Positions 17,639 to 48,292 of a DNA stretch of 64,000 nt are shown here, piece after piece. The notes under the pieces are model-generated. The model did not search any database and had not been told where the DNA came from. It saw only the letters and a list, made by a program, of their open reading frames with translations. The position numbers were made by a program, and so were the translations under genes. How positions within the stretch are numbered: position 1 is the first letter of the stretch; each line of letters starts with the position of its first letter. This DNA is from Dipteris shenzhenensis (Eukaryota). The DNA is taken from the NCBI GenBank assembly GCA_047967505.1, contig CM106538.1; one strand, given 5' to 3'.

Positions 17639-18900
17639 ATGGTGAGGAGACCATACATGTACTCTGTGTCCCATAGGAGCAAAAATGCACTGGGTGAATG
17701 GGTGCCTTGCAACTACAGCTTGAATGACTAGATAGTCATGAGAGGATCTGCCAAGGGTCTACATAAGCTTCCCAAGAGCAAAAGAGGTGATCTTTTGCAT
17801 GAATGGAAGGGCTGCATCATGAAGTTCAAGCTTGGGAAGAAAGGATTGCTTGCAAAGGTGTAACACATCTACATGGGGAAGGACATGTGCCTTCCTCCAT
17901 CAAGCAATCAATTGACAATACCATTGCATTGTAAATTTGCATTTTGTGTAAGATTTTGAAGTGTAATGAGTCAGCTTGAAATTGTATTTTGAAATAGAAC
18001 CAGTGTAATGAGTCAGTTTGAAATTGTATTTTGAAATAGCACTTGTGCATAGCAAATGTATTCCCTTCAGACTTTGAGGAGTGGGAACCAGTCGAGTGCT
18101 TCTTAGGTAAGTTTACTGCCATTCATGAGGATTTAGGAAGGCAAATGCATGCTGGAGAGAAGTCCTCTGCTTTGAAATAGAGAAATATATATTGGTATAA
18201 TGCCAAGTACATTACTCCAAAGACGGTATCAGGCTATGGCCATCTTCAATGCATTGCAACACCACAACTTGAAGACATGGATTGCAGCATGGTGGACACA
18301 AGAACAATGCAATCATACAAGGAAAAGATTGCAAAGGATGTGGACATGGCCATGAAGTTTACATTTGGCTCTAAATTGGTAAGGTTGTCTTGGTTTATGC
18401 CTCTGCACATTTTTGCTTCTTGTTTTCATAATATCCAGATGCACAGAACAAAAACCATGTGGTCATGCAAGTGCCTACATGAGAATGCCCTTGAGGAAGT
18501 GCTTGGGGTGAATTGGGGAAGTAGGTCAGGTGAACAAAAGGGTGATCTATTTCAATGCCATGTATGTAAGGACAATGTGGTTGTCAAGTACCACATCTCC
18601 TGCTAAATGTTATATTTTGCTTTCCAATATAGGCACTGGAATTGGCTCCCCCTTGACTCTAACGATGATGATAATACAAGGGTAAGTTTATGTATTGGTT
18701 CTCATTTAAGAGATGTTAAGAATGTGACTGTCACGTCACAGTGGACTCTCAGGGACGTGCAGGAACACCTATTGGTCATGGAGGATGGCATGTCTGAGTC
18801 CTTTCACTTTACTTTAAATGGTGAAAAGGTAGGAAAGTGTGTAGAGAAGCTCGTGCATAGTGCCACTTTTATCCCTCTTGCAATATTGAAGATTGTCTAG
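17639..18900 (+). pseudogene. Spliced BAH-domain-like gene with a conserved middle domain and possible C-terminal ubiquitin-like fold (disabled)
   Basis: YSLND*IVM..WKGCIMKF..KV*HIYMG [intron] VFPSDFEEWEPVECFLGKFTAI..IWYNAKY follows the BAH pattern. Homologous to 28812-30095(-) and 47819-48292(+). Contains in-frame stops. Confidence 0.65.
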
Positions 18901-19133
18901 AAAATATGGGGTGGAACAATTATGGATTTTGACATTTTCCAATTAATAGTGGTGCAATTAATTTTGATGTTTTGAATGGTTTTATTTCATGTCAATGTCA
19001 AGTTTTTCCCAAAAATTTTATAATTCTTTTTATTTATTATATTTAGAACATTTGGGTATATATAGGTTATAAAGTTACTTCAGTTTCAAAGTTTCACTAT
19101 CATAGCCATAGTTCTCCTAGCTACCAAACTACC

Positions 19134-20618
19134 ATGGATTCTGCTAGGTCTACCTTCCACGATTTCATCTCCCGTACTCCATTAATTGATAGAGAGGAGG
19201 AGTTATTTCTAGTATTTGATAAGAGCATAGATGTCCTAGGCACCTACTTGGGAGCCCGAGATGATTTTGAAGACCTCATCAAGTACATACAAGACTACAT
19301 CGCGAGTTTTGCATATCAACTTGATGAGTCTACAAAAAGATGGGTCCCAATTGATTATTTGAAGTACTTGTTCAATCAAGAACCCAGGTTCGTGAAGCGT
19401 TTAGATCGCTTTCGAGCCCCAGCTCACACCCCTAGGGTTTAGGGAGGTGGACACTGATGACCTCCTAGCATGTGGAGTCATCGAAAACACAGGAAATAGG
19501 TTCCTATCCTGGGAAATGACCTTTATTTTCCTTCTCCAGGAGGGACAAATGGAAGAGGAGGCCTCGACCTCAAGCCCTGACCCTGCCCCTGCCCTTTCCG
19601 ATCCTCTTATTTCTGTAGATGAGCCCAACATCTACAATGAAGAGCCCATAGATGAAGAAGCTGAGGAGCGGGAAGTTGCATTGGCCCTCGAAGTGCTCCA
19701 GCAACCTCCTGAACCCCATTCTACTTCTCAAATTCCATCCACCTTGGGCACCACCTCTGTTGACCCCGCAAAAATGATATGGTTTCTTGCTTCCCTTCTT
19801 GTCGATGGAGAACAATACCTCTTTCCATGACATAGAGGTTATGTTTGGTCTCTAGGAGGATGAAGCTCTTGGTATCCTGTGTGGATATGAGGTGGACACG
19901 ACTATGCAAGAACTTGGGTTTTTGGGAGCAGATGATTCAATAGAAGAGGTTCTTGCTTTAACACTGGCCCAAATCCAAGATGCAGAGACATCAATCTACT
20001 CCGACCTACCTGATGTTCCTAAAGAAGCCTCCACATCTCACTCCAGATAGCACGAGGCCTCTGGATCCATCCTCATTAACAAAGAGGAAGGGATTGAGCA
20101 TGATGACTCCATAGTGGTAAGAAACTATGAGCTTTGAATTTCTTCTCTCTTGGTATACTTTTGCTTTAATGGAATTCTAATGTAATGTTGGAGTGTTGCA
20201 GGAGGCATTTGAGGTTGACCTATTCTCATCTCCGTAACGCCTTGTTCGTAGTAGCTTTGGCCGAGATCACTCACTGGCACATTACCTTGGCCAAGCAAAA
20301 GGGCGCTTTGTGGTTATCCACAATAAGCTTTCTCCACATCGCACTGATGACCTCCTGAAGTGCAAGGCCTTGTCAAGAGTGACTGGTCATGCTGACATCA
20401 ATCGCAATGTTGACAAGGTCATTTTGGTGAACCGCATGGCTGCCCTCAATGCCTTTGGAGCCAATTTTCAAGGTATGGCATTGACGGCGGTACCCATGTC
20501 CCTAGCCAACAACGACAATAGCAATGACTCTCTATCAACTAGGTTTAGAGCTAGGAGTGTATTTGGGAATTCAAAGCCCAATTTTCTTAGTGTTTTAGAG
20601 AAGAGAGAAAGGCTCTGA
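19134..20618 (+). pseudogene. Uncharacterised transposon cargo ORF(s), fragmented
   Basis: Consecutive same-strand ORFs 19134-19442, 19447-19830 (acidic) and 20310-20618, flanked by AT-rich spacers. No family recognised. Confidence 0.45.
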
Positions 20619-45933: not shown

Positions 45934-47043
45934 AAATTATGAGGTGGCTAGTGATTGGGATCTGGATGATGTGGCAATCGATGCTGAGTTGGCAAGATAA
46001 GATGGTGTGGTAGTCGGCTACCACATGTCAAAATTTTGACCAAGCTTCACTTAGCCATGGTTAAGCTGACTCGGGGTTCACTTAACCATTATCTGCCACA
46101 TGTTGACTGGTTGACTAAGCCTTGCTGACCTCTGGTTAAGATTGATCATTAGTGGGTTGTGGTATTTAGAGAGCCACGTGGCCTTATTTACCATGTGGCG
46201 TCATCTCTCTCAAAGATGAATGGAATCAAGGCATCACTAACTCTGTGTCGGTTGGAGGAGTTGTGGACGTTGCTATCTTTGAAGATCATAGTTGAAGTTG
46301 AGGGCATCATAGTCGTGTGAGAGGTCGATGAAGTCTTTGAAGCAACATGTCGCCTTCATTGTCCATTCTATAGGCAGGTGCTACTGAGTCAATTACATGA
46401 GTAGAGTAGCTGAGACTGGCATTGGCTATGGCATGGACGTGCTCATCGAGCATCATGGATGAGTGCTCATTGTGTTGATAGTGGAGAAGACCATTGGTAG
46501 AGCTACCCAACTTTTGCTATAGATGGCACCGTTTGTAGAGGCCGGAGGTGAAGTTGAGGTTAGAGGCCATTGAGCATCTATTGGGAGCACACGTAGGGTT
46601 GGCAAAAGAGCTTGGGTCTGATCCCAAGCATTGTAATAAGGAATCCTCCGTTGTGAGAGTCACTGAGTGTTGGAGGTCAATGTGAGCCGCCATTTGCAGC
46701 ACTGGTCACAGGGTAGAAGGGTTTGAAGAGCCTATTGTCCCGTTCCATTTTGGGAACCTGGAGGTCACTGTCGAATCATTTGAGTGATGTTTGAGATTGA
46801 CACTATAGTGGAGCTCGTGTGTTGGTTGTACTAGATGGGGTAGCACCCTTAGTCATTTGGAGATCTTGAAGTTGGAGCCGCTGTGGCAATTTGGTTGCAG
46901 TGACTATATGTAGTAAGTTGAAGAGCCGAGCAAGCTGAGCTTCTAATTGATGCTTGTGGCTAAGTGGAGCTTGGCAGCTGGTGAAGAGGTTAAGGTTGAT
47001 TGATGCTACTCTCTATGGAGGAGTCGACTACATGGGAGCTGAA

Positions 47044-48292
47044 CATTAGGGGAGAATTGGGGTCTCAAAAGGGCCTCCGATTAATGTTTCCTAATTTCAA
47101 GGGATTAGAGAGTGATTTGAGGTGTACCAATGAGAGTGCTAGAAGGTGTGGGGCAATGGTATGTTGAGGTGGAGTGTGCCTACAGAGAGCCCCTATTGGT
47201 TGCTCCCCTTACACTAGGGACCACCCAAACCATCCCCCCCCCTCTTAACACATGTTTGACCCTCCTACCAGGTGCACCTCCCCCACATGAGCCCAAAACT
47301 GCCTTCAATGGGATGGTAGGGCACTTCTGGCGAGTTTTTCTTCTCCCCTCCCTCTTTCTAGGGCCTCTTCCCCCACTGTTCTAATCCCAGCCTACCAAAT
47401 CACTCAGATTTGAACCAAATCCCACACATTTTCGCTCTTCCCCCTCTTTCTCTGCTCCCTCTTGCTCTGGCCTGCTTGCTACAGCTCCTCTCTCTCTCTC
47501 TCTCTCTCCCCTCTCCCTCTCCTGTGCCTCTGTTGGAGCTGCTCTGTCCCTCTCCTTCTCCCTCTGTTGTGCCTCTGTTGCTGTTGCTCTCTCCCTCTCC
47601 TTCTCCCTCTCTTGTGCCTCTGTTGCTGCTGCAGCTCTGTCCCTCTCCTTCTCCCTCTTTTGTGCCTCTGTTGGAGCTGCTCTGTCCCTCTCCTTCTCCC
47701 TCTCCTATGCCTCTATTGTTGCTGCTTTGTCCCTCTCCTTCTCCCTCTTTTGTGCCTCTGTTGGAGCTGCATTGCCTTGTGTAGGAGTCCCATTCTTGTT
47801 GTTGCAACTTCTGCAAGCATGGTGAGGAGAAAGGCTACAAGACCATGCAATGTTGTGACCTCTTGTGTCTTCCGCAACACTAGAAATGCATTGGATGAGT
47901 GGATCCCTTGCACCTACAGCTTAAATGACTGGATAGTGATGAAAGGATCGGCCAAAGGTCCACATAAGCTTCCCAAGAGCAAGAGAGGTGACATCTTGCA
48001 TGAGTGGAAGGGGCACATCTTGAAGTTCAAGTTTGGGAAGAAAGGATGGCTCACAAAAGTGCAACATGTTTACATGGGAAACATGTAAAGCATCATTCAA
48101 TCGATCTAGGATACCATCACACTGTGAGCCTTTCTATCTATGTACCTTTTTCACCTGTAAATGTAATGAGTCCATTTGGAAATTTTGTGTTTGGTTTCTA
48201 AGAGCTCTTATTCATGGTGGCAGATGTTTTCCCTTCGGACCTCGAGGAGTGGGAACCAGTTGAATCATTCATAGGTAAGTTCATTGCGATTC
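47044..48292 (+). mobile_element. CATTA-terminated DNA transposon, copy 3 (left end, subterminal repeats, start of the BAH-like gene)
   Basis: The first ~300 bp are colinear with 16654 onward. Tandem ~55-60-bp units lie at 47500-47770. Confidence 0.85.
47819..48292 (+). pseudogene. BAH-domain-like gene, copy 3, interrupted by an LTR
   Basis: MVRRKATRPC..YSLNDWIVMKGS..WKGHILKFKF..KVQHVYMG, intron GTGAGC...GGCAG, then VFPSDLEEWEPVESFIGKFIAI. Confidence 0.7.

Follow-up and report, generated by a model that had tools for sequence, protein, structure and literature searches.

Decayed copies of a gene family with a predicted BAH fold in repeated, putatively mobile units of Dipteris shenzhenensis

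Mobile elements that read chromatin marks shape insertion sites and genome silencing, and the known cases carry a Chromo or PHD domain fused to an integrase or a transposase. The accessible portion of a survey of such fusions reports 823 gene models that join chromatin domains to transposable elements, mostly with PHD and Chromo domains (Grau-Bove et al., bioRxiv 10.1101/2021.11.30.470311), and within that portion BAH is mentioned only for the host gene ASH1L. Full-text searches of the literature yielded no paper on a transposon-borne BAH gene or on the domain combination described here; the supplementary tables of the fusion survey might list BAH fusions. Here we describe three copies of a gene whose intact relatives are predicted to encode a BAH fold. 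They lie in a stretch of 64,000 nucleotides (nt) from Dipteris shenzhenensis (assembly GCA_047967505.1, contig CM106538.1), referred to below as the window, which consists of eukaryotic, plant-like repeat DNA with 33-53% G+C.

We favor the explanation, at a probability of roughly 0.55, that these are dead copies of a gene in a repeated, probably mobile element, and that the encoded BAH protein acted as an accessory factor for tethering to chromatin. Taken separately, the location of the gene in a mobile element is likely, and the tethering function of the protein is a tentative proposal. The gene has two exons, its family is real, old, selected and multi-copy, and the protein predicted for its intact relatives combines a BAH fold, a domain of unknown fold and a ubiquitin-like tail.

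Gene copies, intron and selection

The three homologous copies were found at 17639-18900 on the plus strand, 28812-30035 on the minus strand and 47819-48292 on the plus strand, in agreement with the three paralogs reported in the initial annotation. Their parts are as follows.

17639-17930, plus strand: copy 1, exon 1, with the ATG at 17639 and the first half of the BAH-like domain; stops at 17729 and 17861
17931-18055, plus strand: copy 1, intron of 125 nt in phase 1, which starts with GT and here ends with AA
18056-18900, plus strand: copy 1, exon 2, with the second half of the BAH-like domain, the middle domain and the ubiquitin-like tail; terminal stop at 18898-18900
29766-30035, minus strand: copy 2, exon 1, with two in-frame stops; donor T/GTAAGT at 29765/29764
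29122-29660, minus strand: copy 2, exon 2, first part, with one in-frame stop and no AG acceptor before it
28812-29093, minus strand: copy 2, exon 2, second part, behind the frameshift, with the FTYRRFRW motif and a degenerate tail
47819-48088, plus strand: copy 3, exon 1, open until the TAA at 48086-48088; its 3' part is 8 nt shorter than that of copy 1
48224-48292, plus strand: copy 3, first 23 codons of exon 2, truncated; acceptor CAG at 48221-48223

All three copies are pseudogenes, inactivated by stops, a frameshift, lost splice acceptors or truncation, and these dead copies, which represent two lineages, fall within 31 kb. Copy 1 has four in-frame stops (TAG at 17729, TAA at 17861, TAG at 18178 and TAA at 18604). 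Contigs from public sequencing runs that align on this copy have sense codons at all four positions, each a single transition away from the stop, and also show that copy 1 is without a 15-nt stretch that other copies have behind position 18639. Such contigs were numerous, 47 in one run and 10 in another with a likeness of 85-99%, which indicates that many copies are present in the sampled genomes; another run, X11, gave no aligned contigs. The decay of the copies in the window would have proceeded mainly by C-to-T and G-to-A changes, as in methylated repeats.

Copies 1 and 3 are recognizable as relatives at the DNA level, with an identity of 83.8% over 198 nt in exon 1 and of 76.5% over the start of exon 2 (blastn), and their likeness ceases at 48292. 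Copy 2 gave no DNA match to copies 1 and 3 at E<=1e-3 (blastn). At the protein level, exon 2 of copy 1 is 26% identical to copy 2 over 179 amino acids (aa) with an E-value of 6e-26 (BLASTP), and the two copies find each other with tblastn inside the window at 2e-14. The six motif pairs that had been quoted to argue for a motif-by-motif protein match with little DNA similarity were all present.

The intron lies at a shared position, as first proposed. One contig of run X3 joins position 17930 to 18056 and skips the 125 nt that read GT..AA in the window; contigs of runs X2 and X1 have a G at 18055, so that the intron is of the GT..AG type in other copies. In copy 2, the homologous Asn codon is followed by the donor GTAAGT (from 29764), likewise in phase 1. 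In copy 3, the acceptor CAG is situated in the same place as the acceptor of copy 1. The intron splits a Tyr codon just before a conserved [VIL][FY]PS motif, within the BAH-like domain. Among the 61 family proteins that bear the [FY]PS motif, 22 begin no more than 13 residues from it, as frames that cover exon 2 only would do, and in others a stretch rich in Phe, Leu and Cys precedes the motif instead of the homologous residues. One clade, which includes the 373-aa relative P0018 and the intact gene of a metagenome locus (L001), reads through the intron site uninterrupted.

The divergence between copies 1 and 3 was analyzed over 86 usable codons by the method of Nei and Gojobori. There were 24.5 synonymous differences at 50.8 sites and 18.5 non-synonymous differences at 207.2 sites, which gives dS 0.77, dN 0.095 and a dN/dS of 0.12. 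Transitions make up 32 of the 45 differences and could inflate dS; the neutral simulation therefore kept the same counts of transitions and transversions. The number of synonymous codon changes was 20, as compared to 8.3 expected, and none of the 5000 neutral simulations reached 20. Thus, since the synonymous excess exceeds all simulations, most of the divergence between these two copies, now dead, arose under purifying selection. The dN/dS value, which is far from 1, and the large and diverse family agree with the earlier suggestion of long-term selection on the protein.

Protein family and predicted structure

The nearest relative of copy 1 is P0004, an intact protein of 292 aa that is 58% identical to exon 2 (word-indexed search). 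Copy 2 has other nearest relatives, P0013, P0029 and P0017, at 38-39% identity. A profile search of 1.84 billion representatives identified 267 proteins at E<=1e-3, of which 152 remained at E<=1e-10 and 31 at E<=1e-30; many are fragments. A further search yielded 55 proteins at E<=1e-5. No precomputed Pfam domain is recorded for any of the 55, and about 20 have a length of 350-450 aa. Exon 1 of copy 3 finds its counterpart at the N-termini of the long forms, with E-values from 6e-16 to 3e-7. No Pfam family was matched, even at E<=10, by any of the 18 proteins scanned (four window pieces, ten relatives and four frames of L001).

L001 is a metagenome locus of 2 kb that holds an intact, intronless relative. 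The end of its convergent neighbor (1582-2051, minus strand) consists of two frames without a Pfam match or likeness to the window. A pattern search of metagenome contigs returned 85 matches, none of which was a relative. None of 493 candidates of 512-2000 aa was a longer, fused form, which counts as weak evidence. In one relative of 594 aa, P0014, the N-terminal part is unrelated and includes a rubredoxin-type zinc ribbon (Pfam Zn_ribbon_LapB, a match at E 2.6e-5 that stays below the cut-off); this protein is probably a merged gene call rather than a true fusion.

The evidence for the fold was taken from an AlphaFold2 model of the intact relative P0018, which was built from an alignment of 128 sequences; the copies in the window are linked to it by profile E-values and by alignment. 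The model has a mean predicted local distance difference test score (pLDDT) of 93.1 and a predicted template modeling score (pTM) of 0.85. The ESM Atlas offered nothing usable for P0018 (best 0.76) or for the middle domain. Comparison of the model with the PDB by Foldseek gave 66 matches at E<=1e-3, and all those listed (ranks 1-50) are BAH proteins, with BAHCC1 the best at 1.9e-5, followed by ASH1L, DNMT1, TNRC18, MET1, polybromo, AIPP3, MTA1, EBS, SHL, Sir3, ORC1 and ZMET2. In an unbiased VIA-align search of 48,161 chains, which is independent of Foldseek, BAH domains took ranks 1-19 with Z-scores of 13.1-7.8; the top match was ORC1b (Z 13.1, root-mean-square deviation (rmsd) 2.9 A, 126 residues, model residues 1-170). 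A second VIA-align comparison gave Z-scores of 13.7 for SHL, 13.3 for EBS and 12.6 for BAHCC1. The matches extend over residues 1-170/180 of the model and thereby over the whole of the BAH fold, a distorted beta-barrel with a helical insert. The N-terminal domain is very probably a BAH fold, as judged from this model.

Profile comparisons gave less. The family profile that includes exon 1 had a single match among PDB sequences, the BAH domain of BAHCC1 at E 0.025; the profile without exon 1 found BAHCC1 at E 0.36 and the ubiquitin-like domain of ubiquilin-3 at E 0.64, which is weak. The BAH assignment made in the initial annotation is supported by structure, in the model of the relative, and marginally by profile, with no match to the Pfam BAH family. 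A match to ZW10 obtained with one profile (E 6.5e-4) was not reproduced with another and was not seen by structure, and is treated as spurious.

The middle domain, of about 130 aa, is predicted to be of the alpha+beta type and was modeled alone from P0081, a relative of P0018, with a pLDDT of 93.2. It had been described as unrecognised, and it had no Foldseek match below E 0.1; the best VIA-align match had a Z-score of 4.4, which is under the stated background of 7-8.

All matches at ranks 20-50 of the unbiased search align with residues 310-373 of P0018, at Z-scores of 5.0-6.1 and an rmsd of 1.9-3.6 A over 52-62 residues. Nearly all are ubiquitin-like, UBX, PB1, FERM-F0/F1 or Ras-binding domains of the beta-grasp type. 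The tail fits the beta-beta-alpha-beta-beta grasp, with Z-scores that are modest for a small domain, and P0018 apparently ends before the last strand. These matches lend modest support to the view that the C-terminus of copy 1 is a ubiquitin-like beta-grasp. As compared to P0018, the proteins P0174 and P0157 have an unrelated insertion of about 40 residues within the ubiquitin-like domain, followed by conserved last strands, and P0018 stops at that point. This suggests, from the protein sequences, a second intron in the P0018 clade, with the last strand lacking from the modeled tail.

Three candidate pocket residues of the N-terminal domain are near-invariant. Conservation was counted over 35 members with an N-terminus, using P0018 numbering. 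Of 34 members, all 34 have an aromatic residue at position 51, within a W-K-[GA]-x-[IV] motif, and Tyr or Phe at position 82, and 32 have His at position 80, which aligns to the Trp of BAHCC1. The V-x-H-[VA]-[YF] strand of the family aligns to VKWFY of BAHCC1, such that positions 80 and 82 correspond to its W and Y. The copies in the window have W, H and Y at the three positions in copies 1 and 3, and C, H and F in copy 2.

One alternative concerns the role of this domain and leaves the genomic nature of the locus as it is: the BAH-like domain may bind the nucleosome face or another protein, in the manner of Sir3 and Orc1, or be a scaffold only. We consider this rather unlikely. The best structural matches are the methyl-lysine readers SHL, EBS and BAHCC1, and the aromatic, His and Tyr/Phe positions are near-invariant in a family that is otherwise 20-30% identical. 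It is true that Sir3, Orc1, Rsc2 and polybromo fit the model nearly as well (Z 9.2-12.4, as compared to 12.2-13.7 for the methyl-lysine readers), and that the prevailing residue at the position of the BAHCC1 Trp is His.

The repeat units and the surrounding window

Each copy of the gene lies inside a sequence that begins with CATTA. These ends are located at 16654, 47044 and, on the minus strand, 30856, and the units that they delimit have the following parts.

16654-16687, plus strand: unit 1, left end, CATTAGGGGAGAATTGGGGT and then the 14-mer CTCCAAAGGGCCCC; copia homology stops at 16654
16654-17638, plus strand: unit 1, 5' non-coding part, of which the first 250-290 bp are 81-83% identical to unit 3, followed by CT-rich low complexity
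30817-30856, minus strand: unit 2, left end, CATTACAAAAAATTTGGACTC... with the 14-mer CTCCAAAGGGCCCC, here within a palindrome
47044-47077, plus strand: unit 3, left end, with a 21-mer identical to that of unit 1 and the 14-mer with 2 mismatches

The likeness of units 1 and 3 begins at the 21-mer CATTAGGGGAGAATTGGGGTC, which occurs in the window only at 16654 and 47044 (0.00 expected). The sequence CATTACAAAAAATTTGGACTCAAAAAGGGGCCCTTTGGAG precedes copy 2 by 760-820 bp on the minus strand. The 14-mer CTCCAAAGGGCCCC matches the window at three positions, exactly at two of them and with two mismatches at the third, as compared to 0.30 matches expected, and only one of 100 shuffles reached three; each of these positions is within 40 bp of one of the three CATTA ends. 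Thus, based on the counts for the 21-mer (2 versus 0.00) and the 14-mer (3 versus 0.30), chance is rejected as the source of the shared ends. The gene starts 985 bp inside the CATTA end in unit 1, 775 bp in unit 3 and about 760-820 bp in unit 2; the measured range of 0.78-0.99 kb agrees with the 0.8-1.0 kb given earlier. Two lineages with a protein identity of 26% therefore keep the same gene position relative to a recognizably related terminus.

A CT-rich low-complexity stretch precedes the gene in all three units. Microsatellite-like arrays rich in CT/GA are located between the CATTA ends and the gene (17027-17353, 47400-47800 and 30150-30290) and also downstream of copy 2 (27400-28600); they may be subterminal repeats or promoter elements.

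Upstream of unit 1 is a copia-type element, and its alignment to a second copy at 58365-56396 stops exactly at 16654. The repeat-like ends and this break favor the initial claim of a gene resident in a transposable element; the further marks that would belong to such an element, a transposase, a second terminus and a target-site duplication, were not found in the window. The end differs from that of CACTA elements at one base. Two other classes were considered and rejected: a PIF/Harbinger reading, with a TTA duplication and a GGGG... repeat, and a Mutator reading would both turn CATTA into flanking sequence, and all three units share it.

An ordinary, non-mobile host multigene family, with members and pseudogenes scattered through repeat-rich DNA, is unlikely; in such a family the CATTA end would mark where conserved upstream sequence starts or where a segmental duplication has its edge. 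Such a family would not be expected to leave three dead copies in 31 kb, from two lineages that are 26% identical, each equally placed from the same terminal motif, nor a unit that starts at the exact base where copia homology ends. The dozens of diverged copies per sequencing run and the 267 clusters, mostly fragments as is typical of repeats, also speak against it. It would accord with the missing transposase, second terminus and target duplication, and with the intact relatives of 350-450 aa, some of which lie on contigs of 100-325 kb and one of which is intronless on a metagenome contig; purifying selection is equally compatible with a host gene.

We regard it as improbable that the gene is passive cargo, a captured host BAH gene spread by a non-autonomous 'Pack'-type DNA transposon with the selection being that on the host parent. 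In favor of this reading, what look like host-gene fragments downstream of copy 1 (an H3-like frame and a stretch with a weak likeness to a pentatricopeptide repeat (PPR)) are the habit of gene-capturing elements, and the units are without a transposase. Against it, two lineages at 26% identity keep the complete gene and its intron at the same place by a related terminus, so that the capture would predate their whole divergence. In addition, copies 1 and 3 already had the 5' part of the element in common when they diverged, and most of their differences are synonymous.

The remainder of the window is dominated by retroelements. Its copia and gypsy frames include gag, protease, reverse transcriptase, RNase H and integrase domains. 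The copia-type element is present in three partial copies that are 87-90% identical and in mixed orientations (14703-16654 on the plus strand, 58365-54354 on the minus strand, and 26302-27367), and the continuation expected of the copy at 14703-16654 is absent in the same orientation throughout the window. A second retroelement-like repeat, with gag and aspartic-protease frames, is present in three copies that are 86-88% identical (41268-45934, 50168-54253, and 23699-25471 on the minus strand); the copy at 50168-54253 abuts a 100-N assembly gap at 54255-54354, the one gap inside the window. An internally repeated, G+C-rich (52%) stretch at 22475-23500 has Pro-rich and Gly-rich low complexity in several frames and is adjoined by a coiled-coil-like frame on the minus strand.

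Two further frames are located between copy 1 and this stretch. The first, at 21168-21539 on the minus strand, is open over 124 aa and has a histone H3 fold (Pfam Histone 5.9e-26; H3 structures, E 1.5e-29). It is convergent with copy 1, at a distance of 2.3 kb on the downstream side. It aligns without gaps and with many substitutions, is without a start codon or a canonical N-terminal tail, and may represent either an H3 variant that has diverged or a gene fragment that was captured or has decayed. The second, a frame of 215 aa at 21622-22266 on the minus strand, is situated just upstream of the H3-like frame and includes 31 aa that resemble a PPR. It matches a designer PPR protein with a whole-sequence E-value of 5e-9, with no single stretch significant and no Pfam match, and may be a host-gene fragment.

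Proposed mechanism and comparison with known systems

In the explanation that we favor, the left end of the element would consist of CATTA and the conserved subterminal 14-mer, with the gene 0.8-1 kb inside, behind the CT-rich stretch, and the repeat would be a DNA transposon. The BAH domain would dock the protein on a histone tail or nucleosome by means of a pocket of conserved residues, and the ubiquitin-like tail and the middle domain would recruit a partner, either the transposition machinery of the element or a host factor. The element could in this way steer its landing site, or influence how chromatin treats it and be protected from silencing.

Several observations weigh against this explanation. 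With respect to the element, the window contains no partner sequence, either inverted or direct, for the 21-mer, the 300-bp ends or the 14-mer. Since the second end is absent from the window, no element boundaries or target-site duplication can be demonstrated; the far ends may lie outside the window or have been deleted. Downstream of the gene nothing is common to any two units, and units 1 and 3 share only the first 250-290 bp and the gene. The 117 window frames of at least 45 aa contain no transposase or mobility domain, only LTR (long terminal repeat) retroelement domains and one histone fold, and none has a Pfam domain of the Transposase_21 type; the units are truncated. L001, the one relative recovered with its flanks, is also without a transposase domain. 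With respect to the protein, the modeled P0018 is only about 25% identical to the broken copies in the window, Pfam BAH (PF01426) was unmatched even at E<=10 in the 18 proteins scanned, and the BAHCC1 profile match at E 0.025 is not significant alone, such that the profile support is marginal at the sequence level. The family has His where BAHCC1 has Trp, and the three pocket positions are candidates for the aromatic cage of three residues that holds the methyl-lysine in BAH domains of the EBS/SHL/BAHCC1 type. With respect to the intron, run X3 carries the label 'DNA?', which is a guess, such that either a transcript or a processed DNA copy may underlie the joined contig.

A more far-reaching version holds that an old lineage of DNA transposons in a plant-like eukaryote encodes a reader of histone marks, with a BAH domain, a Trp/His/Tyr pocket, a new fold and a ubiquitin-like handle, which chooses the chromatin for integration or resists silencing; this we consider doubtful. 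If true, it would stand as a third independent solution next to the chromodomain integrases and the PHD-transposase fusions. If the repeat were not mobile, the data would still describe a previously undescribed BAH family with an unusual set of domains. The family is large and lies outside Pfam (267 representative clusters), its middle domain is confidently modeled without a structural match, and it supplies intact members for binding assays.

The closest structural counterparts of the protein are histone readers with a single BAH domain, namely SHL and EBS (5znr, 5z8n), AIPP3 (7cce) and ORC1b (5hh7) of plants and BAHCC1 (6vil) and TNRC18 (8ds8) of mammals, which have the same fold as residues 1-170 of the model. 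They align with the P0018 model at Z-scores of 13.7-11.6 and an rmsd of 2.3-4.0 A over 121-144 residues, whereas the sequence identity to the family is only 13-19% and the family is without a Pfam BAH match. Unlike these readers, the family has no PHD finger or other known partner domain, and instead has the unrecognised middle domain and the ubiquitin-like tail; it is also a multi-copy gene in repeat units.

The units resemble CACTA (En/Spm) elements in that the 5-base end is one base off (CATTA), and in the subterminal repeated motifs and a non-transposase gene near the end, of the TnpA type. The first 13 bases of unit 2, CATTACAAAAAAT, match 11 of 13 positions of what we take to be the En/Spm terminal repeat. 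In contrast to CACTA elements, all three ends read CATTA, and the window is without an inverted partner, a 3-bp target duplication or a protein of the Transposase_21 type. The CATTA sequence of the end, together with the missing inverted partner and transposase, keeps the units out of the CACTA class.

In architectures of the UHRF1 type, a ubiquitin-like domain is joined to chromatin readers. UHRF1 likewise has a histone-reader module and a ubiquitin-like beta-grasp in one chain, but differs from the family in its reader types, domain order and other domains, and the family is without RING or SRA. No sequence or structural match to UHRF1 was obtained in any of the searches made.

With regard to the proposed principle, the family is most like the chromodomain LTR retrotransposons (chromoviruses, MAGGY) and the fusions of Chromo and PHD domains with transposons, in which an element-borne reader tethers to marked chromatin. 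It is new as a family but not as a principle. In the Chromo and PHD cases the reader is fused to the integrase or transposase, whereas here a separate gene with a predicted BAH fold has no mobility domain, and the mobility of its unit is putative. If our explanation is correct, the known element-borne readers would be joined by one of a new type and a new architecture, a BAH protein that stands alone and ends in a ubiquitin-like tail.

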